A stretch of 64,000 nt of DNA from positions 16,119 to 80,118 of the forward strand of contig JAISAZ010000103.1 of the NCBI GenBank assembly GCA_031266435.1, read 5' to 3'. Made by a program: the position numbers and the translations under genes. This stretch comes from Accumulibacter sp. Lineage in GTDB: Bacteria > Pseudomonadota > Gammaproteobacteria > Burkholderiales > Rhodocyclaceae. Each line of letters starts with the position of its first letter. Position 1 is the stretch's first letter. This document shows, piece by piece, positions 13,854-32,569 of the stretch. The notes under the pieces are model-generated. The model was not told where the DNA came from and made no database searches. It was given only the letters and a program-made list of their open reading frames with translations.

Positions 13854-13906
13854 TTTGGTCAATAAATTGACCAAACCCCTATATTTTGGTTAAAATTTTG
13901 ACCAAA
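13854..13906 (+). promoter_or_regulatory. Twin 22-bp palindromic operators overlapping a sigma-70-type promoter of the XRE gene
   Basis: O1 TTTGGTCAAT-AA-ATTGACCAAA (13854-13875, perfect 10-bp arms); O2 TTTGGTTAAA-AT-TTTGACCAAA (13885-13906, one mismatch); -35 TTGACC 13867-13872, -10 TAAAAT 13891-13896, ATG at 13906. Confidence 0.75.
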
Positions 13907-14565: not shown

Positions 14566-14595
14566 CTTGTGAGGCGTAGCGAACCCCAAGCTACG
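14561..14595. repeat. REP-A variant hairpin overlapping the XRE stop codon
   Basis: TAGCTTG (14563-14569) / CAAGCTA (14587-14593) stem with loop TGAGGCGTAGCGAACCC resembling REP-A; reads GTAGCTTGGGG... on the minus strand. Confidence 0.6.
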
Positions 14596-14605
14596 CGGAC
14601 CCCGT

Positions 14606-15334
14606 CTATTCTGCATCCTCCGTCCGGGGCTTTTTGTAGCGAACCTTCTCCGACGCAAAGCGCAGGAGTTGCTCCAGCAGAATATCGGGCGGTTTCGTTC
14701 CGTCGAGACGCAGGTGCGGTTCCAACGGCACCTCGAATGTGGATGATATCCCGGTAAAATCTGGAATCTCGCCGCGCATCGCTTTTGCGTAAAGATTCTT
14801 GGGGTCGCGCTGAATACAGACTTCCAACGGTGTATCGACGAAAATTTCGTAAAGTTCGTCCTCCCGAAAAAGCTCCCGGAGTGCCAGCCTGTCGCGCCGT
14901 AAGGGTGAAATGAACGACGCGAGGACGATCAAGCCGGCGTCGGCCATCAGATGCGCCGCTTCGGACGCGCGGCGTATGTTTTCTGAGCGATCTTCTACTG
15001 AAAAGCCCAGGTCGCGATTCAGCCCGTGCCGCAGGTTGTCGCCGTCGAGAAGATAGACGTGCTTCCCGCGTTCGTACAATGCCTTGCCGAGCAGATTGGC
15101 CATCGTAGACTTTCCTGAAGCGGACAAGCCGACAAACCAAAATACGCAAGGATTCTGGTTTTTTTGGGCGGCGCACGTCGCTTGGTTCAAGTCAAACGTA
15201 TGCCATTGAATGAGTGGTCGCACGTCAGCTCCCGCGTCGGCGTCAATCGTCAACGCGCAGCAGTCTTGCGATTTGCGCGTCCCTTTGGGCAATCTGCGTG
15301 TACAAGGCGTTGTGTGATTTTTTGATACATACAA
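14606..15334 (-). CDS. cysC: Adenylyl-sulfate (APS) kinase; true start may be downstream
   Basis: WFVGLSASGKST P-loop, LDGDNLRHGLNRDLGFS.EDRSENIRR, SFISP, DPKNLYAKA..GEI..FTGI. Confidence 0.92.
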   Translation of the reverse strand: MYVSKNHTTPCTRRLPKGTRKSQDCCALTIDADAGADVRPLIQWHTFDLNQATCAAQKNQNPCVFWFVGLSASGKSTMANLLGKALYERGKHVYLLDGDNLRHGLNRDLGFSVEDRSENIRRASEAAHLMADAGLIVLASFISPLRRDRLALRELFREDELYEIFVDTPLEVCIQRDPKNLYAKAMRGEIPDFTGISSTFEVPLEPHLRLDGTKPPDILLEQLLRFASEKVRYKKPRTEDAE

Positions 15335-16463: not shown

Positions 16464-16820
16464 TCAGCCTGCGCTATAAAACAGGCTACACCCGACGGCC
16501 TCACGCGACAGGCGCTCGATCTGCGCGAGCATTTTTTCTCCTTGCGTTTCCAGGATCAGCGCTCGCGCTTCTTCGCCAAGCCCCACGGCGCGTGCGGCGA
16601 GGTGAAAGTCGAAGAGCGCGGACAAATCGCCGTCCTTGACGGCGAATATACGGAACGCCGCTACGAGATTCTCTTCTCCATCTACCAATGGAGCCGTCGC
16701 GCGCAGGGTTGTCCCCTTCGCGCGGCAGTGCTCTTCGGCGATTTGCAGGAGTTGTTCCGCCGAACAGAAACGCACGGCGGCGCCGTTTTCGATCAGGTAG
16801 TAGAGAGTGCGTCCATCCAT
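16464..16820 (-). CDS. Hypothetical protein (~118 aa)
   Basis: ATG 16820 overlaps the last 28 nt of the large glycosyltransferase; fills the gap to the convergent sulfotransferase; no recognised motif. Confidence 0.4.
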   Translation of the reverse strand: MDGRTLYYLIENGAAVRFCSAEQLLQIAEEHCRAKGTTLRATAPLVDGEENLVAAFRIFAVKDGDLSALFDFHLAARAVGLGEEARALILETQGEKMLAQIERLSREAVGCSLFYSAG

Positions 16821-19800
16821 GCGTCGAGTCTGTTTTCGAGCAAATAGTGTTTTTTGACCCATTCGCGCAAGGCGTCGCCCTCGCGCGCGAGCGCGTCGGG
16901 GTCGGCGATCCTCTCAAGGATGGCGGCGATCCATTTGTCGGGGTCGTTCGGCAGGCGCGTGACCGGCGGGTTGTCGGTTCGGAAAGGGAAGATGTCGGAG
17001 CAGATCACCGGCCAGCCGAGAATGCCGAATTCGAGCAGGTGCAGATTGCTTTTGGCTTCGTTGAAGGGGTGGATTTCGAGCGGAGCGACCGCGAGGTCGA
17101 GGTTCAGCGAAGCGAGTTTTTCTGGGTAGGTAGGGAAGTCGTGGTGAAAATCGTGGAATTCGGCGACGTAGGGGCGAATTTCTTCAGGGATCATGCCGAA
17201 GAATATCCAGTCGGCGTCCTTGCACGTCGCCTTGACGACCTCCGTCAGGAATCGCAAATCGCCCGCGTGCTGCTGCGCACCCGTCCAGCCGATGCGCGGC
17301 TTGCGGCCTTGTCGGCGTTTCGATTGCAAATGCCCCCAAACCCGCCATTCCAAAGCGTTCGGAACGACGCGGATGTCGTCGATCATGGTACGGAAGGCTT
17401 CCGCGAGCGGTTCGGTACTGACGAGCAGACGGTCGCACGCACCAAGACCAAGATGTACTCTCTTTGTGAATTCGTCTCCAGATGCCATCGAATGCATGGG
17501 GTGATCTTCGGGGAGGCAGGTGAGCAGATCGTCGAGCGAATAGATGCGAAAAACGCCCGGATTGGATTCCTTATAGCTGAGGAGGGCCGCGTAACTGACC
17601 TCGTTGACAGGCGTGTGCATGACGAGCACGTCGGGCGCGAGGCGGTCGAGTTCGACGGGGGTTGGCGCACGCCGTGCTTGTCCCTCGTGCAACTGGCATA
17701 TGTCGGCGTAGTGCAACCGCCCCTGAAGGTTCAGCGCGCGCAGGGGCGCGACGCCGCGGTATTCCGCCGTTGCCGGAGGCGATACCGGGAGAAACAAAAC
17801 ACGCGGTCGGTCGTGAAAATCGGTATTCCACGGAACGACGAGTTCGTTTTCCAGAGTCAGCGCCATTTCCCATAAGCTGAGGTGGCGGTTCCACGCTGGG
17901 TCGCTGGAGAGACGATGTTTCCACCGCTTGATGAAATTTTCTGTTTCTTGAGCCATTTCAGCAAACGTGGCTTGTTCCATATCTTGGCTGCTTAGATGCT
18001 TGAATGAAGCGGAACCTTGATGGAGCAGCGTGGCGAAAGGCGTCCAGACGACGCGGTAGCCGAGTTCTCCGACCTTGAGACAGAGGTCGACGTCTTGGTG
18101 CTGGAGTTTGAGCAGGGGGTCAAGGCCGGCAACTTGGTGGAAAATCGACGCACGGACGAGCAGGCACGCGCCGGTGACTGCCGAGTATTCCTGGTCGACG
18201 AAAGTTCGATTCATATAGCTCGGCGCATCGTGAGGATGGAGCACGAAAATGTGGTTTGCTGTATTGAGGGGCGCCAAGCCGAGAACGACGCCAGCGTGTT
18301 GGATCTTCAGCGTTTCTGGAAAAAGGAGGCGCGCGCCGACAATGCCGACGTCGGGTCGCTGCGCGTGGCTCATCATCGCGTCGAGCCAGTTGGCGTCGAT
18401 GCATTCGGTGTCGTTGTTGAGGAGTAACAGGTATTCTCCCTCCGCCTGACGCGCCGCGCGGTTGTTCATCGCGGAGTAGTCGAAGTCGCCGGGCGTGGGG
18501 ACGATTTTTACACGGCCCGGAAATCGTGCGCGAAGCCTGTCGTAGTAGGCGTGGACCTTCGGGTCGTCACTGTCATTATCGGCGATCACGAGTTCCCAAT
18601 TCGGGTAGGTGGTCTTTTTGAACAGGCTTTCGACGCAGGGAGCGATGAGGTCGAGGCGGTTGCGCGTCGGGACGATGATCGAGACCTTCGGTTTTTCTTC
18701 GTGCAGATAGACGACGCTACGCGACCGAATCCTTGCGTCAGCGGTCAGTCCCGAAAGAATCGAGACGGGCGTTTTCCTGCGCTTGAAGTGTCGGCGCAAG
18801 GCTTCGGTCGCGCCCTCGTCGTCCGCGCCCATGCTTGCCGAGTCGCAAAGGTGAACGAGGATTTCCGGGATATGGCCGACGGCGGCTTCGCCGGACGCGT
18901 CGATCGCGCGCAAGAGGAGGTCGTAGGGCGCCGCACCGGGGATGGTGGAAAAGCCGCCAGCGCTGGCCAATGTATATTTTTCGATAAAAAAGCCGCCGAT
19001 GTAGTCGGTTGAACGCAGAAACTCCAGGTTGAGGTCGGGTTTGAAGCGCGGCGAGTGGAATTTCCCGTTGCGCGCAACGCAGTCGTCGTCGGCGTAGATC
19101 AGCTTCCACTGCGGGCGGATCGCGATGTAATCGCCGAGCGTCAGAAACGCGTCTTCGGAGAAACGCGTTCCGCACTCGAAAAAGCCGAACCAGTGCGTGG
19201 GCGATTCAGCGATGTACGCGTTAACGTGCTCGGCGAGTTCCTCCGGCGGGCAGCAGACCCAGCGAACGGGGCTGTCGCTTTGCGTGAATTCGGCTTCAGG
19301 CGAAGGGGTTTGCGCGAAGATGCCGAGGCGCCAGCCTGTGTAATACTGCCGCGCGAGGCTGTCGATGCTGTCGGCGAGCAGGGCTTCCTCGCCGGGATTC
19401 AGAATCAGCAGGATTTCGAACAGCGGTGGCGTTTTCCAGAGGTTTTCCGCGCGTTCGCGGCGGAGCGTCTCGAAGAGCGGGTCTTCGAGGCGGCGTTCGC
19501 GCCAGCGCCAGTAGTCGAGCAGGAAAGCCGCCTGCACCTCCTCGCCTCGGTTTTCGAGCGTCGCGCGCCCGGTAAGCGCGGTTTCGATCCATTCGCGTAC
19601 GCCGATGGCTTCGGGAAAGCGCTCGATATAGCGCTCGAGCAGAGGGACAGCTTCGGCGAAACGATCCGATTCTGTCAAGAGTTTTGCCAGCTTCAGGTTC
19701 TCGCGGACCGGCTCGCCGGCTCTTTCTTCGGCACGTTGATACCAAGAGATCGCGAGCGCCTTGTTGCCCATTTTTTCAGCGTAATCACCGAGGCGGTCGT

Positions 19801-21259
19801 AAACTTTCCAGTCGCAATCTTTTCGCTCGGCCAAGCGCCCCAGTCTTTCGATATTTGCCTTCCAGTAAGCGGGATGGTTTCCTATCGGGAGTACCATCGA
19901 AATGAAGATTTCGGGTTCCTCGCCCATCAAGCCAAGCCGATACGCGCCATCACGCAACAGAGCGAAATTGATTCTGGCTTCCTCCGGGATGCCGGGGTCT
20001 CTTTGCTGTTGCTCGGGATGGATACGGAAACACGAGAGCGTTGCCGGGACGTAGGCAGCGTTCCCCTTGGAGAGCAGGTTACACCATATCGCATGATCGC
20101 GGACAACAAGAATGCGATCGTGCCCTGCAAACGCCATGAAGTGAGGTTTGTTCGACGCGAGTTCGGATTTTCTGAAAAGCGGCGTAGTTGGTTCGCCGAT
20201 AAAATTGTATGCGGATATAAGGAGACCCGCAGCGAGCGCCGTTCCTTCGAAAACGCAGTCATCTGTGGAAAGCGGAAGGCTGTCAACCCGATCGGGAAGC
20301 GCACGGTCGTCGGCGTCGATCAACGCTCTTTTTGAAAACGCGAGCGTGATGTCGGGGTACTTCCGAAAGCCCTCCAAGAGGCGTTCGACGCAATCCGGCG
20401 CGAGAGTGTCGTCGTCGTTCAGGAATTTGATGAATTCGCCGTTCGACGCGGTGAAACAGAGAGCATGATTTTCACATCCGGAGTTATCTACCCTATTTGG
20501 ATTTCTGAGGTAACGGACTCGCGGATCCGCTTCGAATTTTTTGACGATTTCTTCGATTCCCTTATCCGGGCAATCGTCACAGATCACGATCTCGATGTTT
20601 TTCCAGGTTTGCGCGATGGCGCTTTTCAGCGCTTTCTCGAAATATTTCGGCTTGTACGCGGGAATCGTGACGCTGACGAGCGGAACAGCGTCAGCGGCAA
20701 GGCGCCGGTCGGACTTGATAAATTCCAGGATCAGGTCCGATTCGGCGCGGTATTCGAGGTTTCTGAGCGCCTCGTGCGTACTTTCGCCGATCCGGCAACG
20801 CTCGGTAAAGGTGAATCCTGCGATTTCCGCGACGCGCCGCAATTCTTCCTCGTCGTAGACGAATTTATGCCCCCACTCGCGCATAGCGACATTCAACGCC
20901 TCGCAACGCGTTTTGACCCAAGGAAGGCCAAACGCGGCGAAACCTTCATGAAGACGATTGCTCTGGTAAGCGGCGACCGTTCCTTCCAGGCCAGGGGTCG
21001 CAAGGCGGAGGATTCCGCCGGTTTTCAGGACGCGCCGCACTTCGCGCAGGAGGCGCAAACCCTCGCGCCGGTCGAGGTGTTCGATGAAATGCTCGCTGAA
21101 AACGGTGTCGCAACTCGCGTCGGGGAAGGGGAGACCCTTTCGTACGTCGATTTGCAGGTCGACGCCCGGAATCGCGTCGATATTGACGAAACCGGGGAGT
21201 ATCCGGCTCCCGCAGCCCAAGTGTAGCCGGAGCGGCGTGCTGTTTTCCTTGATATTCAT
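16793..21259 (-). CDS. Multidomain flagellin glycosyltransferase: class I methyltransferase + GT2 + TPR + GT2 + GT4-like
   Basis: LHLGCG..DVRKGLPFPDASCDTVFSEHFIEHL; LVSVTIPAYK..IVICDD..KFLNDDD; VSIIVPTR..FDYSAMNN..LLLLNND..SAVTGACLL; C-terminal IGWTG..LDLAVAPL..FNEAKSNL.LLEFG. Confidence 0.88.
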   Translation of the reverse strand: MNIKENSTPLRLHLGCGSRILPGFVNIDAIPGVDLQIDVRKGLPFPDASCDTVFSEHFIEHLDRREGLRLLREVRRVLKTGGILRLATPGLEGTVAAYQSNRLHEGFAAFGLPWVKTRCEALNVAMREWGHKFVYDEEELRRVAEIAGFTFTERCRIGESTHEALRNLEYRAESDLILEFIKSDRRLAADAVPLVSVTIPAYKPKYFEKALKSAIAQTWKNIEIVICDDCPDKGIEEIVKKFEADPRVRYLRNPNRVDNSGCENHALCFTASNGEFIKFLNDDDTLAPDCVERLLEGFRKYPDITLAFSKRALIDADDRALPDRVDSLPLSTDDCVFEGTALAAGLLISAYNFIGEPTTPLFRKSELASNKPHFMAFAGHDRILVVRDHAIWCNLLSKGNAAYVPATLSCFRIHPEQQQRDPGIPEEARINFALLRDGAYRLGLMGEEPEIFISMVLPIGNHPAYWKANIERLGRLAERKDCDWKVYDRLGDYAEKMGNKALAISWYQRAEERAGEPVRENLKLAKLLTESDRFAEAVPLLERYIERFPEAIGVREWIETALTGRATLENRGEEVQAAFLLDYWRWRERRLEDPLFETLRRERAENLWKTPPLFEILLILNPGEEALLADSIDSLARQYYTGWRLGIFAQTPSPEAEFTQSDSPVRWVCCPPEELAEHVNAYIAESPTHWFGFFECGTRFSEDAFLTLGDYIAIRPQWKLIYADDDCVARNGKFHSPRFKPDLNLEFLRSTDYIGGFFIEKYTLASAGGFSTIPGAAPYDLLLRAIDASGEAAVGHIPEILVHLCDSASMGADDEGATEALRRHFKRRKTPVSILSGLTADARIRSRSVVYLHEEKPKVSIIVPTRNRLDLIAPCVESLFKKTTYPNWELVIADNDSDDPKVHAYYDRLRARFPGRVKIVPTPGDFDYSAMNNRAARQAEGEYLLLLNNDTECIDANWLDAMMSHAQRPDVGIVGARLLFPETLKIQHAGVVLGLAPLNTANHIFVLHPHDAPSYMNRTFVDQEYSAVTGACLLVRASIFHQVAGLDPLLKLQHQDVDLCLKVGELGYRVVWTPFATLLHQGSASFKHLSSQDMEQATFAEMAQETENFIKRWKHRLSSDPAWNRHLSLWEMALTLENELVVPWNTDFHDRPRVLFLPVSPPATAEYRGVAPLRALNLQGRLHYADICQLHEGQARRAPTPVELDRLAPDVLVMHTPVNEVSYAALLSYKESNPGVFRIYSLDDLLTCLPEDHPMHSMASGDEFTKRVHLGLGACDRLLVSTEPLAEAFRTMIDDIRVVPNALEWRVWGHLQSKRRQGRKPRIGWTGAQQHAGDLRFLTEVVKATCKDADWIFFGMIPEEIRPYVAEFHDFHHDFPTYPEKLASLNLDLAVAPLEIHPFNEAKSNLHLLEFGILGWPVICSDIFPFRTDNPPVTRLPNDPDKWIAAILERIADPDALAREGDALREWVKKHYLLENRLDAWMDALSTT

Positions 21260-21484: not shown

Positions 21485-22120
21485 TCAGAGTCCGATTTCC
21501 CGCGCGGGGTTTCCGAAAACCTTTTCTCCTGCCTTGACGCGCTTCAAGACGACGCTACCGGCGCCGACGTAAGCGTCGTCCTCGATCACAACGCCCGGCG
21601 CAATGGCGACATTGCCGCCGATAAAAACACGGTGGCCTATCGAAACGCGGCCCATAATATTACAATACGATGAAATCGTACAGTAGTCGCCTACGGTCAC
21701 GTCGTGTCCCAGACCGCATGTAAGAAAACTCGGGAAGTTTCCGACGCTAACGTTTACCGTCATGCCGAATCCGCCGTAAACAACGGCGCCTTCGCCGAGT
21801 GTATTGTGCCGTCCGAGATAGGCGTAAGGGTGGACGACGGATTCAAAAACCGCGCCGCGCGCTTTCAGCGTCGTCGAAATCCTTTCCTTGGCGGCGGGGT
21901 TGGCAATAGCCATGACAAGCGCTTCATTCTTTTTCGGTATGTAATCGTCGATTGTCCCGACGACAGAATAATCGCACGCTTTGCCCCGTAGCGGGTCTTC
22001 GGTGTCGTCGAGGAAGCCCTTTATGTTCCAGCGTTGCCCTTGGGTGGCGTGAATGTCGAGCATCAGGTTCAAGACTTCACGCCCGAAGCCGCCCGCACCG
22101 AGTATGTATATATCCTTCAT
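21485..22120 (-). CDS. NeuD/PglD-like sugar acetyltransferase (left-handed beta-helix)
   Basis: IYILGAGGFGREV N-terminal domain, hexapeptide repeats, GAGSVV..VFGNPAR. Confidence 0.88.
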   Translation of the reverse strand: MKDIYILGAGGFGREVLNLMLDIHATQGQRWNIKGFLDDTEDPLRGKACDYSVVGTIDDYIPKKNEALVMAIANPAAKERISTTLKARGAVFESVVHPYAYLGRHNTLGEGAVVYGGFGMTVNVSVGNFPSFLTCGLGHDVTVGDYCTISSYCNIMGRVSIGHRVFIGGNVAIAPGVVIEDDAYVGAGSVVLKRVKAGEKVFGNPAREIGL

Positions 22121-22139
22121 TGGGTTTATTCATTTCCAA

Positions 22140-22997
22140 TTATCTTACACTGACGATTCTACCTTCCCTTCGATAGGTCGTATCTTTTAAGTTCGTGTCG
22201 AACTTCCCGTCAGTCAAGCAAAAAATATCCGTATCAAGCAGCCGGGAAATTGTTTCATAAGAATCCTTTTCATCGAAGCAGCAAAGTGCGCTGTCACCGA
22301 CGTTTTCGCTACGTAATTGCCTTTTTTTCACCATCGCATCGTATACGACGAACTTGGGGTTCAAGTTGCAATTCGCGTAGGTCGAGTAGAGGAAGGCTTT
22401 TCGGTTCTTGCTTTCCCGGCCATCTTCGTCTATCACGGTTCCAACGAATTTTCTGTCGTACCTGTACGGAACACCTAGGACAGCCTCGGCATAATGCGTG
22501 TAGGTGAAGCACGCGCGCATATCCGCGCCAAAGAATAGAAATTTGACATTTTTCCCACAATTGCGCAAGCGATCGTAGTTTGAATCTTGACCGATGGAAT
22601 ATTCGCTCAAATCGTCCACAAGATTCAGTTTGTCTCCGAGAACATAGACAGAGAGCAGGGGATCGTGAGTGCGGGCGCCGCGACCTGTTTTTCGGACGTA
22701 TTCATTGAGCGCACCCATCGGGGTTTTGCTGTTTTGCACGTCATAAGCTTCGTCATTGCAAAAGCTGAAAGTGAATGTGGGGAAAACGAGCGTGGCAACG
22801 CGTAGTTCTTCGATGATTCGCAGCAACGAAGCGAGCAAGTCTCCGCGCCTGATTCCTTTTGCGGGTAGCCCGAAAGTCATGTCCGTGTGGATGTAGAGAA
22901 CATCGCATTCGCCTGCCTGTATTCTCTTGAGTTTTTCGAGCATCTTCGACGAACTCACGCCACCCCGATTGCTGTGGAACAAGACTTCATTTTGCAT
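22140..22997 (-). CDS. AAC(3)/YokD-family N-acyltransferase (start at ATG 22997)
   Basis: DVLYIHTDM, TLVFPTFTFSF, MGALNEYVRK, RTHDPLLSV, FTYTHYAE..LGVPYRY motifs. Confidence 0.85.
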   Translation of the reverse strand: MQNEVLFHSNRGGVSSSKMLEKLKRIQAGECDVLYIHTDMTFGLPAKGIRRGDLLASLLRIIEELRVATLVFPTFTFSFCNDEAYDVQNSKTPMGALNEYVRKTGRGARTHDPLLSVYVLGDKLNLVDDLSEYSIGQDSNYDRLRNCGKNVKFLFFGADMRACFTYTHYAEAVLGVPYRYDRKFVGTVIDEDGRESKNRKAFLYSTYANCNLNPKFVVYDAMVKKRQLRSENVGDSALCCFDEKDSYETISRLLDTDIFCLTDGKFDTNLKDTTYRREGRIVSVR

Positions 22998-23017
22998 GGT
23001 GTTATCCCTTTGTGAAA

Positions 23018-23764
23018 TCAGAGTTTCGGAAAGCGCTCTCCGCCGTCTACGTTGATGATCTGCCCTGTGAGGTAGCACGCGTCCTCCGAAAGCAAAAAGC
23101 GTGCGACCCTAGCGACATCTTCGACGGCTCCTGGTAGTAACAGCGTGGGCGGTGCCCATTCTGCGTCGTCGGACGTATCGGCGAAAAGCGTTTGTATAAT
23201 CCGCGTTTTGAACGACCCTGGCGCGATGGCGTTTACACGCACGCTGGGCGCGAGTTCGTTGGCGAGTGCGACCGTCAGCGCGTTGATAGCGCCCTTGCTC
23301 GCGCAATAGTGTGCCTGATGTTTTTTTCCGACAGTGGCCACGATGCTGCTTGTGAGGACGATCGCTTCAAGGCGACCGGCGTTGACCCTGCGCTTCAGGA
23401 GCGTACTGATGATTTCCGTCGCCGAAAAGTAATTGATATTCATTACTTGCAGACCGACGCTGTACTTCGTTTTGGATATCGGCAGTACTTCGGTTATTCC
23501 AGTGAAATGCGCGAAGGCTTCTACGCCTACGCCTTCTTCCCTCAGGAATGCCCCAAGTGTTGCCGCGAGGCCATCGGCTTTTTCCAGGTCGTAGGGGAAA
23601 AGGAGTACCTGGTTGCCGTGCTCTGCACAGGCATCGCCGACCGCAGCGAGTCGTGCTTCGTCGCGTCCATTCAGGATGAGGTTACGATCAAGGCTCAGCA
23701 GCTTTGCGGTAGCCTCACCCATGCCGGAGGAGGCGCCGGTAATGAATGTGAAAGATTGATTCAA
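23018..23764 (-). CDS. Short-chain dehydrogenase/reductase (FabG-like)
   Basis: ITGASSGMG, YCASKG, VNAIAPG, YLTGQIINVDGG. Confidence 0.9.
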   Translation of the reverse strand: MNQSFTFITGASSGMGEATAKLLSLDRNLILNGRDEARLAAVGDACAEHGNQVLLFPYDLEKADGLAATLGAFLREEGVGVEAFAHFTGITEVLPISKTKYSVGLQVMNINYFSATEIISTLLKRRVNAGRLEAIVLTSSIVATVGKKHQAHYCASKGAINALTVALANELAPSVRVNAIAPGSFKTRIIQTLFADTSDDAEWAPPTLLLPGAVEDVARVARFLLSEDACYLTGQIINVDGGERFPKL

Positions 23765-23803
23765 GATTGAATCCTCAATGAATGAAGTTGTAGGCTAGCT
23801 TTT

Positions 23804-25052
23804 TTACGTCCGCAACTTCATGCGCTCTGGCGGAATGGCATAGCAAATCACCTCATCCCCCCAATTCGTGTAAGCGCGCAAAACAAATTTGTAATCGGGA
23901 ACGATGTGTTTTATGAATAATGGTAGATCGTAAAGGTCGTACGGGTGATGATAGACAGAAATGGCAAGGACGGGGCGGTCTCTGCTGATTAATTCGGATG
24001 CGCCGTGTAATGCGTGTGCTTCGAAGCCTTGGATGTCCATTTTTATAAGCGTTACCGGATTTTCGCCGCTCAGGCGGTTGTCCAAGGGAATACATGGTAT
24101 TTTGCCCCCCCCCCCCCCTAACATCGCTACGCTCTTCAAGGGTAACGAAGGAAGAAGACCCCATATCCTCTGGATTAAGATATACGGTCCCATCCTCTGA
24201 ACCTACCGCGCTGTGCAAAACAGTAACCTTAGCCTGGATGTTGTTGGGCAAAGTTTCTAATGTCTCACGCAATCCCTTGATGTTTCGCTCGTCGGGTTCG
24301 ATGGCGATATATTTTTTGAAAGAACGAGCGGAATCCATCTTTAGGTATTGCAAAAGCGTATCTCCAGTGAATGCGCCGCAATCGACGAAAACATCGTTCT
24401 CTATGCTCGTGTATACATCATCAAAATATTGAAGCTCAGGATCGCTGGCTGGTATGAAAGCGTCCGAATTTAGAAGATAGCGCTTCAATACGGACGTAAA
24501 GACTGCCTTGGAATGGAAATCGCAGAAAAGATCATAGGCTTGCTTGGTTTTGACCCTGTTCCTTTGAGATGCAAATATGTCGGTTTTGCGATAGAAATCA
24601 TAATTTTTTGTTTTTTTGGAACCATATGGAAGGAAGTCGCCCAATTGCCTAAAATTTATGATTATGTTCTTTGCGTCATGAGGAAAAAATTGTGCAATTT
24701 CAGCATACGATTTTTCAGCGCGGTCATTGAGTTCGCAAATGACAAAGAGCGCTCGCGGCGCCTTGAGCAAAGCTTCGCGTAGGGGGAGGGTATCCTGCTC
24801 GTCACGTGGGCTGTCCGAAAGAGAGCAATGCGTTGAAATTTTCGGTTCATGGCTTTCATCGCTCACCGTTATTGGAATTTCAGGGAGGGTCTCCTTCATG
24901 AGAGAAAATATAACGTTTGAGTGGTAATTGGCCGGGTAAAGAATCACGCCAGACTTACTTTTCCACTCGTCGCCATATTTTTGTTTGGTGAAACGCGATG
25001 AGTCTAACATAGTGTTGTCATAAATTTTGAAAAGTTGCTCTATATTGCACAT
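23804..25052 (-). pseudogene. FkbM-family methyltransferase, frameshifted at a G14 tract (probable phase-variable OFF state)
   Basis: Frame 1 has FVDCGAFTGDT..IAIEPDERN..AVG; after the tract the FkbM C-terminus (LIKMDIQGFE..ALHGA..RPVLAISVYH) is in another frame. G13 or G16 would give one ~415-aa ORF. Confidence 0.88.
24105..24118 (-). repeat. Homopolymer tract C14 (G14 on coding strand)
   Basis: Direct count TTTG-C14-TAAC; the longest homopolymer I noticed in the window. Confidence 0.9.
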
Positions 25053-25056
25053 GACT

Positions 25057-26598
25057 TTACCTTCCGGGTGTATGCATTCTGTCGTGAAGGGGCAGGGTTT
25101 CCTTGAGCGTAAAGCGGTCGATTTTTCCGTTGACGTTACGCGGCATCTCGCTTAGGTGGATGTACTCTGTTGGAAGCATGTAACGGGGGAGGGTTTCTCC
25201 AAGGCGAAGCCTGAGCGATTTTTCATCGAGAGTTACGCGCGCTTCATAAAAGAGGACGATTTTTTTATCCCTGTAAAAAACGCAGCAATTCCTTACTTCG
25301 GCAACCGCGCTTATAGCGGCATGTTCAATTTCCGCAAGCTCAATTCGGTATCCTTGGTGCTTTATCAGAGTATCCTTGCGCCCTTTGAATACGATTTCGC
25401 CGTAGTCATTCACGTATACGATATCGCCGGTCCTGTAGATTATCTCGGGATAGCATCCGTTCAAAGGGTTCTGAACGAAGACCTCGGCTGTTTTTTCGGG
25501 AGCGTTGTAGTAACCAAGGGCGAGTGAAGACCCCAAAACGCACAGTTCTCCCTCTTCACCGGTTTTTGCCAGTTCGTTCGATCCGTTCAGAATGAGAATG
25601 TCGACGTTCTTTCTCGGAAATCCTATCGGGATCGGCTCGTCATTTGCAAGCTCACGTTCTATTTTGTAATAGGTGCAGTCGACGGTTATTTCCGTCGGAC
25701 CGTACAGGTTGACAAAAATGGCGGTGGGGAAGGCGGCGCGCCAGTAATTAAATTGCCGCGTTGGAAAGACTTCACCCGCGAACCAGATCGTTTTCAAAGG
25801 GGGGGGCACTGCTTCGTCGAATAGCTTCATATTTGCGATATTGACCATGATGGTCGGCACCCAAAAAATGAAACTGACACTGTGCGTTTTCAGGAGTCCG
25901 AGTATTTTTACCGGAAAGGCTGAAAGAGACGGAGGGATCAGGAGCAATGAGACACCGTGTATGAAAAGAAGGCATATTTCGTATACATAGTGATCGAAGA
26001 CGACGGGAGAAAGGACTCCAAGAACCTCTTCATGCGAGAGCGAGAAGGTGTCTATCGCCCAGCGTGTATAGTCCAGAAAACCGCGCTGATGCAAAACAAC
26101 GCCCTTCGGTGTCCCCGTCGATCCCGATGTATTGATGATGCAGAACATTTTGGAATCCGCCGTACAAGAGACGATGTTCGAGGATTCTTCCATCGCATCT
26201 GGTTGTGCGAGGATTTCTTCCATGCAAAGAATGATTTGCTCTTTCAAACGAATTTTAAATATATGATCATATAATTTCCGCGTCGTCAATATCAGCGGTG
26301 GTGCAACGTTTTCCAGAATCCTGCGTATTCGTTCGTGTGGAATGCTTACATCCAGATTCATGAAAGCATTTCCGCTGTAAATGATACCCAAGTCGGCGAC
26401 GACAGTTTCTGCGGATTTGGACAGATAAACGGCGATGGGTCTATTGGAAACTTCTGTATTGGACAAAGCGTGAGAAATGGCGAGAGCTTTTTTTCTGAGT
26501 TCTCGGAAAGTAACGTGCCGCTCACCGTCGATAATCGCCGTCTTCTCTGGAAATGTGGCGACTGTTTCTTCAAAGTGTTCAATAATATTCGTTTTCAT
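25057..26598 (-). CDS. Stand-alone adenylation (AMP-binding) enzyme, DltA/NRPS A-domain-like
   Basis: IINTSGSTGTPKGV, NLYGPTE, YRTGD, GRKDTLIKHQGYRIELAEIE, NGKIDR. Confidence 0.92.
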   Translation of the reverse strand: MKTNIIEHFEETVATFPEKTAIIDGERHVTFRELRKKALAISHALSNTEVSNRPIAVYLSKSAETVVADLGIIYSGNAFMNLDVSIPHERIRRILENVAPPLILTTRKLYDHIFKIRLKEQIILCMEEILAQPDAMEESSNIVSCTADSKMFCIINTSGSTGTPKGVVLHQRGFLDYTRWAIDTFSLSHEEVLGVLSPVVFDHYVYEICLLFIHGVSLLLIPPSLSAFPVKILGLLKTHSVSFIFWVPTIMVNIANMKLFDEAVPPPLKTIWFAGEVFPTRQFNYWRAAFPTAIFVNLYGPTEITVDCTYYKIERELANDEPIPIGFPRKNVDILILNGSNELAKTGEEGELCVLGSSLALGYYNAPEKTAEVFVQNPLNGCYPEIIYRTGDIVYVNDYGEIVFKGRKDTLIKHQGYRIELAEIEHAAISAVAEVRNCCVFYRDKKIVLFYEARVTLDEKSLRLRLGETLPRYMLPTEYIHLSEMPRNVNGKIDRFTLKETLPLHDRMHTPGR

Positions 26599-26676
26599 GG
26601 TGTGCGAATATTTAAAGTCGCGTGTTGTGGGAGCAGGCCAATTGCTTTTGGGAATGTGTTACTCCAGTATTGAAGT

Positions 26677-27543
26677 TTATGCCATACGGATTTCATGCTT
26701 TATAAATTTATATACCATATGGTAGATGAACACGCCGTCAAGTGTCTGATTGAGTAGCCGAGAGTATTTCATCAGGCGCTTGTTCGTCGCATCACGCCAG
26801 CCGTAAAACCGGGATGGCGGGATAGCGAGCCGCCGGATATGGCGATGTAGGAAATAACCGAATTTTACGGAGAGGAACTCGTCCCGATAACCCTTTCGCG
26901 TTATGTCGTAGATGTCGGAGTATTGACCGTTCTGTATGCTGAAGTAGAGGAGTGCGCCAATCATTTTGCCTCTTCTAATGACGAGAATCTGGCGCGCCTC
27001 GATGTTTTTTATGATTTCCGAAAATTCTGGGATGTTGTCTCCAAATAAATCGAATTCCTCGAAAAGCATCTCGGAAATTTCTTCGGCATCACTGACGCAC
27101 GCATAGCCGACCTGCTCTTCTTGTTGGCTTTTCAGCAACTGCTGTACCAAGGGCGGATTGACGTCAGTACGAATTCTTGCCAAGCGCTTGCAGAGCACGA
27201 AGCCGGACTCATCAAAAACCGTAGCGATTTCACCTGTAGAGGGTTCTTTTCCGGTTATCGAAGCGCGTAGCGCGAACGTATCGTCGTAAACCGACAAAAA
27301 ATTCTTTAGGTCGTCACGTAATGAATCCATGCTTGCCGAGACGTAAAGGAAGTCATAGTAGGAATCGTGGTAAGGAATCAATAAAAAAAGCGAAGCTTCA
27401 AGAGAATGGAATAGGCAGTGCCTACTTTCAAGGAGTTGGCGGAGTTTATCCGCGCTCAAAAAAATATTGCTCAGCGGACGGCGATATTTTTCTTTCAACG
27501 CGTCGGCGCGGCCAATGAAATCAAGAATCGACGCTGGTCGCAT
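26677..27543 (-). CDS. Hypothetical protein, possible GNAT-fold acyltransferase
   Basis: C-terminal half VGYACVSDAEEISEML...ILVIRR...TRKGYR resembles GNAT motifs; lies between the adenylation enzyme and an SDR. Confidence 0.5.
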   Translation of the reverse strand: MRPASILDFIGRADALKEKYRRPLSNIFLSADKLRQLLESRHCLFHSLEASLFLLIPYHDSYYDFLYVSASMDSLRDDLKNFLSVYDDTFALRASITGKEPSTGEIATVFDESGFVLCKRLARIRTDVNPPLVQQLLKSQQEEQVGYACVSDAEEISEMLFEEFDLFGDNIPEFSEIIKNIEARQILVIRRGKMIGALLYFSIQNGQYSDIYDITRKGYRDEFLSVKFGYFLHRHIRRLAIPPSRFYGWRDATNKRLMKYSRLLNQTLDGVFIYHMVYKFIKHEIRMA

Positions 27544-27585
27544 ATCCCTCCTTCTCGGCGGTTATTGACATTGAGCTTTGTTGGG

Positions 27586-28362
27586 TTAGCACACGGCACC
27601 AGCATTGATGGAAAGCGTTGCACCTGTAATGGATTTTGCTGCGTTGGAAAGCAGATAGATGGCCAGTTTTGCGACGTCGTTCGGGTCGATAAGGCCGAGC
27701 GGTTGGTAGCCTGTTGATTTGATGTGCTCGTTGAAGTCGCCGGTGATCTCGTCGATTTCGGCCAGCATTTCAGTTTTGACGAAGGCGGGGCGTACTGCGT
27801 TGATCGTCATGTTCTTCGCCGCGAGCTCTGTGCCAAGGCAACGAACGGCGGCCTCCATGGCGGCTTTTGAAGCCGCGTACGCGGTAAGGTATTTCTCATG
27901 CGTCACGCTTGCCAGAGATGAGATGCAGACAACGCGCATACTTTGCGCCTTTGTTTTTTTTCGGACGAGGCAACGTATGAATTCTATAAACGGATAAAAA
28001 TTTATTTGCATGAATTCATGCGTCGTTGCGTAAGTGTTGTCGCGTAGCCTGATTTTCCCCATCTTTCCTGCGGAAAATATAAGCCCGTCGATGTGATTAT
28101 ATTCTGTTTGCATTGTTGTCACTACCATTTCGATATCTGAAATATCAGCGATGTCGAAAGGGAGGATGGTGTGCTTACCCCGTGGCATCAACTGAAGAGT
28201 TTCTTCAAGCGCCTGTTTATGTCTCGCTACGAGAATCACATTGGCGCCTTGCGCGCCAAGTTCAAGGCAGACGCTTCGCCCTATCCCTGAGGATGCGCCG
28301 ACGACGAGATAGTTTTTGCCAGAATATTCGCCGTTCATTTTCAAGACGTGATGAAGTTTCAT
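27586..28362 (-). CDS. Short-chain dehydrogenase/reductase (FabG-like)
   Basis: LVVGASSGIG, YAASKAA, INAVRPAFVKT; ATGA overlap with the upstream KAS III. Confidence 0.9.
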   Translation of the reverse strand: MKLHHVLKMNGEYSGKNYLVVGASSGIGRSVCLELGAQGANVILVARHKQALEETLQLMPRGKHTILPFDIADISDIEMVVTTMQTEYNHIDGLIFSAGKMGKIRLRDNTYATTHEFMQINFYPFIEFIRCLVRKKTKAQSMRVVCISSLASVTHEKYLTAYAASKAAMEAAVRCLGTELAAKNMTINAVRPAFVKTEMLAEIDEITGDFNEHIKSTGYQPLGLIDPNDVAKLAIYLLSNAAKSITGATLSINAGAVC

Positions 28363-29456
28363 TCATTCACTGGCTTTACGAAGCCCTCTTCGAAACGACC
28401 GTCGTAAGTGAAGATCGGATCGATGACCGACGAGTCGATTTCAAAAGCGGCGATTCCCCAGGATAGTCCAATGCCGAAACCGCAGGTCAAAAGCGATAAT
28501 TTGTTTTTTTCCGCGTTAGCGAAGGCGTCGGCGATCGTCAGAGAGACAGATGCGCCCCCCATGTTGCCGTAACGGTCCAGCGAGACGGGAACTTTATCCA
28601 TGTCGATTTTGAGGCGTTTGGCGATGGCGCTGACGATCTGCAAATTTGCCTGATGTAGCACCAAGGCGTCGTAGTCGACCAAGGTCTTTTTCTGCGTCGA
28701 GACGAATGCGCGAATACTATCCACGACGGTTGTGGTTGCAAATAGAGTAATTTCCAGTCCATCCATGTAGGCACCAAGTCCTGAATATTCCGCGCCATTC
28801 GGCAACAATACCTTGGGCTGATATCGCCATGCGTTTCGGGCACCGCCGAAAGGGGCAAGCATATGCTTGTAACCTGACCCGTCTGTATGCAGGGAAACGC
28901 TCAGAGATGTGCATTCACTCTTTTCCAGTAGCAAGGCCGTAGATCCTTCCCCGAAAAGGAAAGAGTCTTGCCTCAACAACTCCTCTCTGGAAGCATATTG
29001 CGGCCATATGGTTTCGCCGGAAAACATCAGAACACGATTAACGTGCGCCTGCTGCAAAAACGCGGCGCAGACGGAAAGCCCGTAGGGGAAGCTCGAGCAC
29101 CCCAAAGTAATATCGAAGGCTAGGGTACCCGACGGAAGTCCAAGACGATACTGCATCAGGCATGCGTTCCCCGTCGCGGGGTTGTAATCCGGTAATTGCG
29201 ACATGAAGACGATCGCGTCGATGCTTTCCGCATCCCATCCGGTTTTTTCCATCGCTCGGAGCGCGGCAGCGTAAGCGAAGTCGGTACTGGTTTGCTCGGT
29301 GATCGAGATGTGACGTTGCGAGATGCCGGTCTGCTTTTGAAAATTTCGTACGTAGGCCGGGTCGGGGGTTTTGTCAGCGCCGATTTTCTGCACGTACGAG
29401 GGCACGGCACAAGTAAGCGCCGCGATCCTCACGTTGTCGAATTCTAGATAGGCCAT
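28359..29456 (-). CDS. 3-oxoacyl-ACP synthase III (FabH-like) #1
   Basis: Catalytic triad motifs DITLGCSSF, HQAN, YGNMGGAS; GFGIGLSWG. Confidence 0.9.
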   Translation of the reverse strand: MAYLEFDNVRIAALTCAVPSYVQKIGADKTPDPAYVRNFQKQTGISQRHISITEQTSTDFAYAAALRAMEKTGWDAESIDAIVFMSQLPDYNPATGNACLMQYRLGLPSGTLAFDITLGCSSFPYGLSVCAAFLQQAHVNRVLMFSGETIWPQYASREELLRQDSFLFGEGSTALLLEKSECTSLSVSLHTDGSGYKHMLAPFGGARNAWRYQPKVLLPNGAEYSGLGAYMDGLEITLFATTTVVDSIRAFVSTQKKTLVDYDALVLHQANLQIVSAIAKRLKIDMDKVPVSLDRYGNMGGASVSLTIADAFANAEKNKLSLLTCGFGIGLSWGIAAFEIDSSVIDPIFTYDGRFEEGFVKPVNE

Positions 29457-29681
29457 CTAGGCCGACTCCATTGTATTCAGGATGTCCCGCACGGTTTTGA
29501 ACGCGCGTATCTGCGCGCCAGTTACCTTTTTATTGAATTTATCGGTCATCAGCACCACGAGCGAAAGCGCGGCGAGCGAATCCCATTCGTTGATGGAGCC
29601 GAGGCTGGCTTCGGGCGTCAGAGTGCCTTCTTCCAAGTCCATGATTTCTTCCAGCGCGGCCAGTTTTTCTTGTAGATTCAT
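29457..29681 (-). CDS. Acyl carrier protein #1
   Basis: 74 aa, acidic, WDSL phosphopantetheine attachment motif. Confidence 0.9.
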   Translation of the reverse strand: MNLQEKLAALEEIMDLEEGTLTPEASLGSINEWDSLAALSLVVLMTDKFNKKVTGAQIRAFKTVRDILNTMESA

Positions 29682-29715
29682 TTTTTTCCTTTCGTGAGAA
29701 TAGGTTCCAAGAGCC

Positions 29716-30816
29716 TTAACTCGCGGTATACGCGATGGTTCCTTCTCCCGGATGTTCTAGGAACTTGCAAAAATCCAGCTTGCCCAAGCGGTCGACGCCC
29801 GCCGCCAAGGATAAACCGGCGCCGAAGGCGGAGTAGCAGACGAGAGGGCGTTCCGTGAGCAGACGTTCGCCCAAGTTGAAAGCGATATTCACCGGAATTG
29901 TCACTGTCGACGAATTACCGAAGTTCTCGACGATATTGTTGAAGAGTATCGACCGGGGAACATCAATTAAATCGGCCAGCTTTTCGAGCATGAAGCGGTT
30001 GGGCTGGTGTGTCAGGTGGTAGCGGATATCACCTTTGGCAACCTTGGCGTAGCGGCAAGCCTCTTCGACCAGCGGCGGAACTTCTTCCATGACAAACTGG
30101 AATACGGCGGTCCCGTCCATGTGCATATTGTTCAGGCTACGGTAGTTGCCCATTTCATCCTGAAAGACCTTTGCGGTCTCTTCGGAGTAAGGCATGCGGC
30201 GCCCGCCCGCCGGGACGATGAGTGCTTCACGACGGCTGCCGTCGGTGTGGAATACGAAAGAAATTTTGTCATCAATGTCGGCGCTTTTGCTCACGACGGT
30301 GACGGCGGCTGCGTCACCGCACAAAGGGTAGGTGTTGCGGTCGAGTTTGTTGGCGTAGCATGCGCCAGCGTCGGTCGTCACGAGGACAACTTCTTCGATG
30401 TCCGACGCGGCGATCAGACTACATGCCGTGTAGAGACCGGAAATGAAGCCGATGCAGTTTTCATAGAGGTCGGTGCAGAAGCAATCGCGCGGAAGACCGA
30501 GCTGGCCGTGGATGACCTTGCTGTTCCCGGGGGTGAGGTGGTCGGCCATCTGGGCGACGACGACGAGCGCAGAGACGGCATCTTTTTCGAGATAGCCTTC
30601 GTGAAAAAGATAATTCAGCGTGTAGGAGGCCAGATCGCAGGGTGTCGTTTGCGGGTCGGCGATTCTGTGCTCCTTGAAACCCATGACTTTGGCGAGCCGA
30701 CGCGAAGATTTTTCCGGGAACGGAAAATCTTTCAGTTCATCCTCGAAGCGGCAAACCCGCGCTGGAACCGTGGCGCAAATGCCTCGAATTTTTACCCCGT
30801 GAATCGTCGCTCGCAT
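29716..30816 (-). CDS. 3-oxoacyl-ACP synthase III (FabH-like) #2
   Basis: ENCIGF (Cys), HQPN (His), FGNSS (Asn), FGAGLS. Confidence 0.9.
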   Translation of the reverse strand: MRATIHGVKIRGICATVPARVCRFEDELKDFPFPEKSSRRLAKVMGFKEHRIADPQTTPCDLASYTLNYLFHEGYLEKDAVSALVVVAQMADHLTPGNSKVIHGQLGLPRDCFCTDLYENCIGFISGLYTACSLIAASDIEEVVLVTTDAGACYANKLDRNTYPLCGDAAAVTVVSKSADIDDKISFVFHTDGSRREALIVPAGGRRMPYSEETAKVFQDEMGNYRSLNNMHMDGTAVFQFVMEEVPPLVEEACRYAKVAKGDIRYHLTHQPNRFMLEKLADLIDVPRSILFNNIVENFGNSSTVTIPVNIAFNLGERLLTERPLVCYSAFGAGLSLAAGVDRLGKLDFCKFLEHPGEGTIAYTAS

Positions 30817-30831
30817 CGTGTAACCGTTTTA

Positions 30832-31089
30832 TTAAGCCATGCCTTCTGTTATCGGTACTTTTTTGCTTTTCTTTATGAGCGCACAGATGTTTTTTGCCGA
30901 CGAAAAATTTTCGGGAACGATGTCGAGCGCCGAAATGAGTATCGAAAAAGTTTCCTCAAGCTCACCTACGAGAGTGACGACATCGAAACTGTCCAAATAG
31001 CCCATTTCGACGAAATCGACACCTTCTTCAAAGTCGTAAACGGGTTGAATATCCTTGAGAATTTCAAAAACTTTTTCTTCCATGACCAC
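30832..31089 (-). CDS. Acyl/aminoacyl carrier protein #2 (DltC-like)
   Basis: GYLDSFDVVTLV phosphopantetheine motif and PENF tail. Confidence 0.88.
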   Translation of the reverse strand: MVMEEKVFEILKDIQPVYDFEEGVDFVEMGYLDSFDVVTLVGELEETFSILISALDIVPENFSSAKNICALIKKSKKVPITEGMA

Positions 31090-31094
31090 TCCTG

Positions 31095-32267
31095 TTATGA
31101 TAAACAGTTTTTTACGATGTCAGCGATGCGCTCGATGTTTGCGTCTTCAAGCCCCGGATACAGTGGTAGACAGAGGACGCGCCGGGAGACGCTTTCCGCA
31201 ACGGGACAGGGTTGCGTTTCCTTGAGATAGGGGAGCGTGTTCAGCGCCGGATAAAAGTAGCGCCTCGAAAAGATGTTCTTCGCGTTCAGACGTTCCACTA
31301 CGCACAGTAGCGTTTTCTCGTCGTCGAAAATCACCGGGTAATACGCGTGATTGTATTTCAGGTCGTTTCTGAGAGCGGGGCGCCTCAGGCCGAGCGGCGG
31401 GAGGTATGCGTCGTACGCGTCGCGAACTTTTGCGCGCGCGGCGATCCTGCTTTCAACGCCGTCCAGCAGGGCGAGGCCCATCGCCGCGTGAAGCTCAGAG
31501 AGTTTCGCGTTGATGCCGAGGCGATAGTGTACGTCCCCATGGTGCCCGAAGGCGCGCAGGAGGGTCAGCGCTTCCATGGCCTCCGGCGAGTGCGCGACCA
31601 CGCCGCCGCCTTCGACCGTATGAAATATTTTCGTCGCGTGAAAACTGCACGTGGCATAATCGCCGTAATTGAGTACGCTTTGGCCTTTGTAGGCGCTACC
31701 GAAACACTGTGCACCGTCGTAAATAAGCGTCAGGTGTGCGTCTTTCGCCATTGTGCCGAAGGCATCCACGTCGCACGCGTTGCCGTAGATGTGCACCGGC
31801 AGAACACCAGCGACGTCGGGTGTGATCTTTTCCGAGACCGCGTGAGGGTACAGGCAGAGGGTTTCTTCGTCAATGTCCGCGAAGACCGGCGTACAGCCTT
31901 CCCACAAGAGCGCGGAAACGGTTGCTACGTAGGAAAAAGGCGTCGTGATGACTTTCTTTCCCGTCAGCCCCGACGCGCGCAAGGCGATTTGCAGGGCCAG
32001 TGTACCGTTGGCGCAAAGCGCGAGGTGCGGAACGGAGAGGCGCGTTTTGAGTGCCGTTTCGAGCCGGTCGACGAAAGGGCCATGATTGGTAAGATGCCCG
32101 GAAGAGAATATCTGCGCCAGATAAGCGGCGTATTCGCTCGCATCGGGGACGGCGGAGCGCGTGACCTGGATGGGGGCGATCGCGTCGATTCCGTCAGGCG
32201 GAAGCGGATTTTCGCACTCTTTTGCGGCGGCGGCGTCCGAGAGCGTGTGTGGAATTTTATGCGCCAT
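31095..32267 (-). CDS. DegT/DnrJ/EryC1/StrS sugar aminotransferase, VioA-like (start uncertain)
   Basis: IQVTR..P, LTNHGP, TPFSYVAT, SFHATKIFHTVEGG (PLP lysine), GINAKLSE.HAAMGL, RRYFYP, VLCLPLY. Confidence 0.9.
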   Translation of the reverse strand: MAHKIPHTLSDAAAAKECENPLPPDGIDAIAPIQVTRSAVPDASEYAAYLAQIFSSGHLTNHGPFVDRLETALKTRLSVPHLALCANGTLALQIALRASGLTGKKVITTPFSYVATVSALLWEGCTPVFADIDEETLCLYPHAVSEKITPDVAGVLPVHIYGNACDVDAFGTMAKDAHLTLIYDGAQCFGSAYKGQSVLNYGDYATCSFHATKIFHTVEGGGVVAHSPEAMEALTLLRAFGHHGDVHYRLGINAKLSELHAAMGLALLDGVESRIAARAKVRDAYDAYLPPLGLRRPALRNDLKYNHAYYPVIFDDEKTLLCVVERLNAKNIFSRRYFYPALNTLPYLKETQPCPVAESVSRRVLCLPLYPGLEDANIERIADIVKNCLS

Positions 32268-32569
32268 GCGCTTCTTTCTCAGAAGGACGCGGCGTAGTAG
32301 ACCGCTTTTTTCGGAGAAGAAGCTGGGTGGGGAGGTCGAAGTGTCCAAGGCACTTGGAATCACGCGCGGCTGGAGAACCGGAAAGCGAGTTTCGCTTGCG
32401 GAAGAGACGAGACGCGGGTAACCCGCCCGGACAAGCGTCGAAGCAACGCGGAATCGTGGAATTCCGTCATGGTTTTGTGCCTATTTTTGAAAATGCGAGC
32501 ATTTCCTCTTCTCTTTAACTGGGCTTTAATTATATAGATAACTGAGTCGACGATTCTATCTGTTCTGCT

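Follow-up and report, generated by a model that had tools for sequence, protein, structure and literature searches.

An intragenic poly-G tract in an FkbM-family methyltransferase gene of a termite-gut Rhodocyclaceae-like bacterium: a candidate contingency locus for flagellar glycan decoration

Known poly-G switches and the FkbM gene of the window

Nearly all work on contingency loci based on simple sequence repeats (SSR) concerns vertebrate pathogens (e.g., Campylobacter, Helicobacter, Neisseria, Haemophilus). Neisserial switch genes include lgtA/C/D, pgtA and pglA/E. Described systems closest to the locus treated here comprise (i) poly-G switches in glycan-decorating genes of Campylobacter, the phasomes of which commonly contain poly-G methyltransferases (PMC6321876, PMC3068675), (ii) poly-G/poly-C phase-variable glycosyltransferase and pilin-glycosylation genes of Neisseria (PMC5084427, PMC5320596), and (iii) ntHI0694 of Haemophilus influenzae 86-028NP, a (G)12-containing FkbM-family methyltransferase gene considered to encode a possible phase-variable sugar O-methyltransferase (PMC2651432). 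The present analysis concerns a G14 tract within an FkbM-family methyltransferase gene (25052..23804, minus strand), located in a 64-kb stretch of contig JAISAZ010000103.1 (assembly GCA_031266435.1, Accumulibacter sp.; hereafter the window). If the tract acts as a switch, the same type of bet-hedging would operate in mutualistic, non-pathogenic insect-gut bacteria, and would indicate that the surface chemistry of flagella is under strong fluctuating selection there (by phages, protists or host immunity).

The locus resembles those of Campylobacter jejuni/coli (Cj1295, maf genes, S-adenosylmethionine (SAM)-dependent methyltransferases), where intragenic poly-G tracts of 7–13 or more residues reside in surface-glycan genes of the flagellin-glycosylation and capsule loci, frame toggling alters a glycan substituent rather than the whole structure, and tract lengths differ between strains. 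In contrast to these low-GC epsilonproteobacterial pathogens with pseudaminic/legionaminic acid, the present host is a termite-gut betaproteobacterium of ~59 % GC with a viosamine-like cassette, one such tract occurs in 64 kb, and switching is what we infer. With ntHI0694 the gene shares, at the level of the family, FkbM membership and a long intragenic poly-G, but the tract of the former is located at the 5' end of the open reading frame (ORF) with lipopolysaccharide (LPS) as proposed target, whereas here it occupies a loop midway through the catalytic domain, and the genetic surroundings are flagellar. Neisseria, a betaproteobacterium and the classic poly-G organism, likewise has intragenic poly-G switches in protein- and lipooligosaccharide-glycan genes, but these belong to a different order and habitat (human mucosa) and encode glycosyltransferases instead of an FkbM methyltransferase.

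In view of the H. influenzae (G)12 FkbM gene (PMC2651432), the Campylobacter poly-G methyltransferases (PMC6321876) and the betaproteobacterial affiliation of Neisseria, the novelty assumed in the initial annotation was overstated. The mechanism itself is known; new are the host lineage, the habitat and the comparative evidence for an old tract with a selected ON frame. A literature search combining termite gut and phase variation retrieved, among the papers covered, none linking termite gut bacteria to SSR phase variation.

The tract consists of exactly 14 bases, read as C on the plus strand (context ...ttttg CCCCCCCCCCCCCC taac..., C run at 24105–24118) and as G on the coding strand, and subdivides the gene as follows:

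24119..25052, minus strand: FkbM gene, part upstream of the tract; amino acids (aa) 1–312; a Rossmann-like domain at the N-terminus (no Pfam hit) is followed by the first half of the FkbM domain, starting at ~aa 221
24105..24118, minus strand: homopolymeric tract G14, encoding the end of R312 and G313–G316 of the restored protein; proposed slipped-strand switch
23804..24104, minus strand: FkbM gene, part downstream of the tract; aa 316/317–415 plus stop codon (23804–23806), in frame only with G10, G13 or G16
23853..23855, minus strand: stop codon met by the assembled G14 frame (399-aa product, 83-residue out-of-frame tail)

The start codon (ATG at 25052) is preceded by a Shine-Dalgarno sequence (GGAAGG). 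From this ATG, the G14 frame yields 399 aa, the last 83 of which are out of frame, and the conserved C-terminus (KIPCIPLD...KMDIQGFE...LAISVYHHP..., ending at 23804) is encoded in another frame. In silico variation of the tract length from 8 to 18 gave a single ORF with G10, G13 and G16 (414, 415 and 416 aa, respectively), while all other lengths led to products of 325–328 or 397–400 aa. Neither half of the gene contains a further stop or frameshift, and the restored full length is 415 aa. Position of the tract, splitting of the frame, absence of other stops and restoration of a ~415-aa protein by G13 or G16 had been proposed in the initial annotation and agree with these translations; two amendments are required, namely that G10 also restores the frame, and that reading in the disrupted G14 frame passes the tract and continues for 83 codons before stopping.

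Since the longest other runs in the 64 kb are six (C) and eight (G) residues, and only 2e-4 G/C runs of at least 14 are expected in the window (first-order model), the tract is far beyond chance. Codon usage points the same way: GGG represents 14 % of the Gly codons in the island, and four consecutive GGG have a probability of ~4e-4. SSR contingency genes are recognised by a G/C run of about 7–8 or more within an ORF or promoter; the FkbM gene combines such a long intragenic repeat with a length-dependent formation of full or aberrant product.

Affiliation of the restored protein with FkbM-family SAM-dependent methyltransferases is indicated by matches to PF05050 (E 2e-13, 51.3 bits at a cut-off of 22.7, aa 224–380) and TIGR01444 (71 bits at a cut-off of 37.7), as well as by the match of a subfamily profile to the solved FkbM structure (PDB 2py6, E 3.4e-38). 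The FkbM domain extends over ~aa 221–380 and is cut by the tract, with the SAM-binding motif VFVDCGAFTGDT (VDCGAxxGDT) encoded upstream and the KxDIEGxE and YH motifs downstream, in keeping with the motif positions originally read from the translations. In an alignment of 31 sequences, invariant residues before the tract include V221, D224, C225 and G230. Since 9 of the 16 invariant residues (K337, D339, G342, E344, P360, Y367, H368, P377, R392) lie downstream of it, the out-of-frame products are predicted to be inactive.

The AlphaFold2 model of the restored protein (predicted local distance difference test score 84.7, predicted template modelling score 0.82) places R312 and G313–316 at the end of an 11-residue loop (305–315) between the strands 301–304 and 316–321. 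Because the glycine run resides in this modelled loop, three, four or five glycines should be tolerated, the tract representing an insertion into a tolerant surface loop. Homologues of 38–45 % identity (P0003–P0009) are full length, lack the glycine run and have a loop shorter by ~8 residues.

An orthologous tract and selection on the restored frame

Searches in 5.8 billion proteins, the GTDB representative genomes and the JGI metagenomes retrieved a single close relative (P0002), encoded on a 1979-nucleotide JGI contig (L001) from another metagenome, JGI sample 3300042606; all other homologues found there share at most 45 % identity. The FkbM gene of L001 is 73 % identical to that of the window on the protein and ~80 % on the DNA level, and is preceded by an ORF with 84 % identity to the ligase gene of the window, demonstrating a syntenic orthologous locus. 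At the same codon position as the G14, L001 carries a G9 (L001:1827–1835). This gene is also split at its tract: the N-terminal frame stops 12 codons later, and the QIPCIPLD...KMDIQGFE... part is present in a different frame, open to the contig end, which would be joined by G7, G10 or G13. Tract length hence varies between relatives (G9 vs G14, n = 2), the absence of such variation having been named as counter-evidence in the initial annotation.

Ratios of non-synonymous to synonymous substitutions (dN/dS) were estimated according to Nei-Gojobori for the pair of window and L001. Upstream of the tract, dN/dS amounts to 0.144 (dS 1.13, 311 codons), similar to the neighbouring ligase gene (0.115, 289 codons). 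Downstream of the tract, the restored frame yields 0.18–0.20 (46–48 codons), compared to 1.11 and 1.19 for the other two frames of the same DNA, one of which is the frame continuous with the N-terminus in the window; dS is 0.8–1.1. Because dN/dS is 0.14–0.20 along the full-length frame vs 1.1–1.2 in the other two frames, it was the complete protein on which selection acted while the two lineages diverged over a long time, although neither sampled allele is in frame. The gene is thus very probably functional and under selection. Automated gene calling yields a "frameshifted pseudogene" for the metagenome-assembled genome (MAG), although the gene is probably functional and switchable.

On these ratios, an old pseudogene was rejected. 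A non-adaptive decay of recent date, in which the tract is a mutational hotspot and the gene an early pseudogene newly inactivated in both lineages, would agree with both known alleles being out of frame and with a probably dispensable methyl group (Pseudomonas still glycosylates after deletion of vioM, PMC3927599). Loss of methyltransferases also seems to occur, as suggested by one FkbM gene in the window vs 2–3 in related cassettes, and in one strain (L246) a different gene of the cassette is disrupted where A7 is shortened to A6. However, neither allele has acquired a second lesion over ~1.25 kb, and a dN/dS of 0.14–0.20 at a dS of ~1 would mean that any permanent inactivation took place very recently, and separately in each lineage. 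Moreover, the uninterrupted run was kept at the same site despite saturating synonymous change, rendering decay improbable.

The uninterrupted run is retained at one site in both lineages at a synonymous-site identity of 42 %; under neutrality, the GGG third positions common to both would persist with a roughly estimated probability of ~0.03–0.07. G/C runs of 7 or more are absent from the cassettes of distant homologues (L242–L248). Since these cassettes have no such run and the homologues with 38–45 % identity no tract, the tract is most readily regarded as a lineage-specific gain kept in both descendants.

Frame repair requires opposite changes in the two orthologues, i.e., −1 or +2 G in the window and +1 or −2 G in L001, as expected from random drift in length rather than from a fixed recoding signal. 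In insect endosymbionts, frameshifted genes are known to be rescued by transcriptional slippage on long homopolymers. In analogy, slippage of RNA polymerase or ribosomal frameshifting could provide constant low expression without clonal switching, and selection on the restored frame while both alleles are out of frame would be accounted for. This programmed recoding is nevertheless highly improbable: the shifts of opposite sign argue against a specific ribosomal frameshift signal, discounting the latter as main explanation, a conserved stimulatory structure downstream was not seen, although no search aimed at it was made, two OFF states out of two have a chance probability of ~0.44, and slippage during transcription does not exclude slippage during replication. 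As a more unusual variant of the contingency locus, both lineages may default to the out-of-frame state, with a trickle of enzyme formed by transcriptional slippage.

The locus was found in one public run (X1, a termite gut metagenome). In the Logan assembly of this run it lies on a contig of 13.6 kb, with all 14 bases present and free of indels, and in the JGI/IMG assembly the same 399-aa product was called (P0121) on an 85.7-kb contig. Contigs with alternative tract lengths were not found in X1 using 2.3-kb and 126-base queries, contigs being known to drop minority variants. On every platform, no context is more prone to indels than a long G run, both assemblies of the window were built from one set of reads with a word depth of ~11 at the locus, and purifying selection on the full-length frame is also what an intact gene would show. 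One may therefore consider a homopolymer miscall, with a true G13 (G10 in L001), an intact gene and an artefactual OFF state. This is unlikely, as two different assemblers give 14, and the other genes of the window are unbroken at A/T runs of 7–8 and at the G8 run. L001 would in addition have to contain a separate error, opposite in sign, in a mere G9, a length normally correct in short-read consensus. A G13 within an ORF would still be intrinsically hypermutable, so that the OFF assignment alone would be lost and the switch would stand.

An SSR contingency locus is probably the best explanation of these findings. Slipped-strand mispairing during replication would add or remove G residues in the tract within the FkbM catalytic domain. 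G10, G13 or G16 would correspond to the ON state with an enzyme of 414–416 aa and 3–5 glycines in a surface loop, and any other length to the OFF state with a presumably inactive product devoid of the C-terminal 40 % of the FkbM domain. The dominant allele in the sampled population would be G14, i.e., OFF. The operon is predicted to form an N-acylated 4-amino-6-deoxy-type sugar, and the switch would most likely toggle one methyl group on a terminal sugar of the flagellin glycan. The outcome would be mixed populations with two surface epitopes, in which glycosylation and motility are not abolished. The contingency locus as originally proposed gains from the G9 orthologue at the same site and from purifying selection on the restored frame; reversible switching itself is what we infer, and so are the acceptor of the methyl group, flagellin as target and the agent exerting selection (phage, protist or host). 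Whether selection has maintained this locus over a divergence of dS ~1 in uncultured termite-gut Rhodocyclaceae-like symbionts, as a bet-hedging device for the flagellar glycan, presumably directed against flagellotropic phages or against recognition by predators or the host, appears evenly balanced.

Several points weigh against the contingency locus. It was detected in the single run X1 and in the form of contigs, which collapse minority lengths, whereas the behaviour that defines such loci is length heterogeneity within a population. The two assemblies share their reads and the platform is not on record, so that they are not independent with respect to a systematic homopolymer miscall. Tract-length variation among relatives is based on n = 2, with both alleles OFF; this has a chance probability of ~4/9, and both could be inactivated. 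The selection test downstream of the tract spans 46–48 codons only.

The sugar-acylation cassette and its flagellar context

The FkbM gene belongs to a minus-strand gene array, which begins with the 1488-aa multidomain protein on one side and includes a methyltransferase/glycosyltransferase protein beyond the aminotransferase on the other, where a GGDEF gene and the dcw cluster follow. Its members next to the FkbM gene are listed below:

16793..21259, minus strand: 1488-aa multidomain protein (methyltransferase, GT2, tetratricopeptide repeat (TPR), GT2); candidate transferase for the modified sugar
21485–22120, minus strand: NeuD/PglB/VioB-family sugar N-acyltransferase, downstream in the operon (TIGR03570, 167 bits at a cut-off of 160.8)
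22140–23078, minus strand: AAC(3)-like N-acyltransferase, downstream in the operon
23018–23764, minus strand: short-chain dehydrogenase/reductase (SDR), ketoreductase, downstream in the operon
25057..26598, minus strand: DltA-like adenylating ligase (AMP-binding; amino-acid adenylation domain), the stop codon lying 4 nucleotides before the FkbM start
26677–27543, minus strand: 288-aa protein without known function, cassette
27586–28362, minus strand: SDR, cassette
28359–29456, minus strand: 3-ketoacyl-acyl carrier protein synthase III (KASIII), cassette
29457–29681, minus strand: carrier protein (PF00550)
29716–30816, minus strand: KASIII, cassette
30832–31083, minus strand: carrier protein (PF00550)
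31095–32363, minus strand: DesI/VioA-like 4-aminotransferase (DegT; best match to the DesI model)

The enzyme set matches that of the viosamine and PAK islands of Pseudomonas, comprising a 4-aminotransferase, a VioB-family acyltransferase, KASIII, a 3-oxoacyl-acyl carrier protein (ACP) reductase, an ACP, a methyltransferase and a large glycosyltransferase. Compared by enzyme set, the operon logic for a methylated N-acyl viosamine is thus shared with the P. syringae viosamine and P. aeruginosa PAK islands (PMC3927599), but the cassette of the window is larger, containing a second KASIII/SDR/ACP set, a DltA-like ligase and an AAC(3)-like acyltransferase. Deletion of vioM in the Pseudomonas viosamine island reduced the mass per flagellin glycan by 14 Da, the unmethylated sugar still being transferred (PMC3927599). 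VioM (241 aa) belongs to a different methyltransferase family and is not phase variable; the analogy is a functional one and not homology, which detracts from the proposed role of the FkbM gene.

The island spans 16.8–34 kb of the window, and the distance from the FkbM gene to fliC is about 19 kb. The flagellar and glycosyltransferase genes at the other side are arranged as follows:

325–1524, minus strand: fliK
1790–2350, minus strand: fliT-like gene
2571–3896, minus strand: fliD
3922–4377, minus strand: flaG
4491–5288, minus strand: flagellin gene (fliC)
5750–8557, plus strand: TPR protein
8557–10989, plus strand: TPR plus GT41 glycosyltransferase

The flagellin glycan of Burkholderia cenocepacia is N-3-hydroxybutanoyl viosamine. 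TPR-glycosyltransferases encoded beside flagellin genes act as flagellin O-glycosyltransferases in Caulobacter (FlmG, PMC7591256) and in B. cenocepacia (FlmQ, PMC4462625). No Wzx/Wzy/Wzz, ATP-binding cassette (ABC) exporter or initiating phosphoglycosyltransferase is encoded in the window. Because of this gene content (viosamine-like cassette, no exporter) and the linkage to fliC and the TPR-GT41 gene, the flagellin glycan is somewhat favoured as target, by analogy to the Pseudomonas islands, and a methyl group on a terminal flagellin sugar would most likely be the toggled group.

The same switch could act in an operon decorating the LPS O-antigen, a capsule or another glycoconjugate, as FkbM-family enzymes methylate LPS sugars in Rhizobium etli (work cited in PMC2651432). 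Also pointing away from flagellin, ~11 kb including a DUF5131/helix-turn-helix (HTH) insert separate the island from fliC, this DUF5131/HTH insert and an adenosine 5'-phosphosulfate (APS) kinase gene lying between the cassette and the GT41 genes, and no flagellar genes were seen within 10 kb of the cassette in other lineages, some contigs being too short. Such a target is possible though doubtful, since the window lacks the Wzx/Wzy/Wzz, exporter and initiating functions, the enzyme set is that of the viosamine/PAK flagellin islands, and the island adjoins fliK–fliC and two TPR glycosyltransferase genes.

The segment between the GT41 genes and the island (12906–15334) contains a DUF5131 (phage Gp37/Gp68-like) gene, an HTH regulator gene and the APS kinase gene. 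The APS kinase hints at a sulfated glycan, and DUF5131 together with HTH at the insertion of a mobile element.

Distribution of the cassette, host organism and further repeats

Each gene of the core cassette has a counterpart, at 41–75 % identity, in several uncultured lineages, one of them represented by a MAG labelled Deltaproteobacteria. It comprises (21485–32363 in the window; L242–L248) two KASIII, two SDR, two carrier proteins, a DltA-like ligase, a ~290-aa protein without known function, AAC(3)-like and VioB-like acyltransferases and 1–3 FkbM proteins, and some related cassettes additionally encode an esterase, a radical-SAM enzyme or a formyltransferase. One FkbM gene is present in the cassette of the window, compared to two or three in the related ones. 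The three operon genes downstream of the FkbM gene (21485..23764) are 65–70 % identical to the same genes of the L242 cassette. The FkbM gene thereby draws attention to a widespread and apparently uncharacterised sugar-acylation cassette with one to three FkbM methyltransferases.

The GC content is 47–52 % across 22–30 kb of the window vs 60–65 % in the flanking flagellar and dcw genes. Since it is low relative to the flanks and related cassettes elsewhere likewise have 48–53 % GC, horizontal acquisition of the cassette is suggested.

MraY encoded in the window is at most 74–76 % identical to that of any GTDB representative, the best matches being Dechloromonas, Azonexus and Methyloversatilis. 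Judged from sequence, the host from the termite gut metagenome is a divergent, uncultured Rhodocyclaceae-like betaproteobacterium with ~59 % GC; the designation "Rhodocyclales-like" given at first was a fair one.

The main contig of the Logan assembly stops at 25530. Positions 25501–25600 are covered by two alternative contigs of short length, one at a depth of 5.7 and identical to the window, the other at a depth of 2.5 and with 8 differences per 100 nucleotides. Because these alternative contigs differ, at least two strains of the organism are present in X1, which differ within the ligase gene. The same gene contains a C8 run on the coding strand (25799–25806), the second-longest G/C run in the window. 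It was considered as a second switch but is in frame (VPPPL) and interrupted in L001 (CTCCCTCC); with 1.2 runs of at least 8 expected it is within chance and probably not a switch.

In the region of L246:12567, a 519-aa radical-SAM/B12-binding gene is split by an A7 to A6 change, and L245/L247 are near-identical to this locus (3 differences in 1.7 kb). Thus, in a further decoration gene of the cassette, a homopolymer either varies naturally or was assembled incorrectly.

Related heptamer tandem arrays (CAGAGGA, CAGAAGA, ATCAGGR, CAGGAGA and their complements; 2.6–8.6 copies) occur at numerous sites that appear to be intergenic, among them the two borders of the glycosylation region:

5445–5477: heptamer array
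10992–11037: heptamer array
11414–11447: heptamer array
34928–34987: heptamer array
55260–55291: heptamer array
55384–55457: heptamer array
56112–56142: heptamer array
56594–56625: heptamer array
56743–56760: heptamer array

These arrays could represent a genome-specific family of intergenic repeats, or additional heptanucleotide SSRs in promoters.

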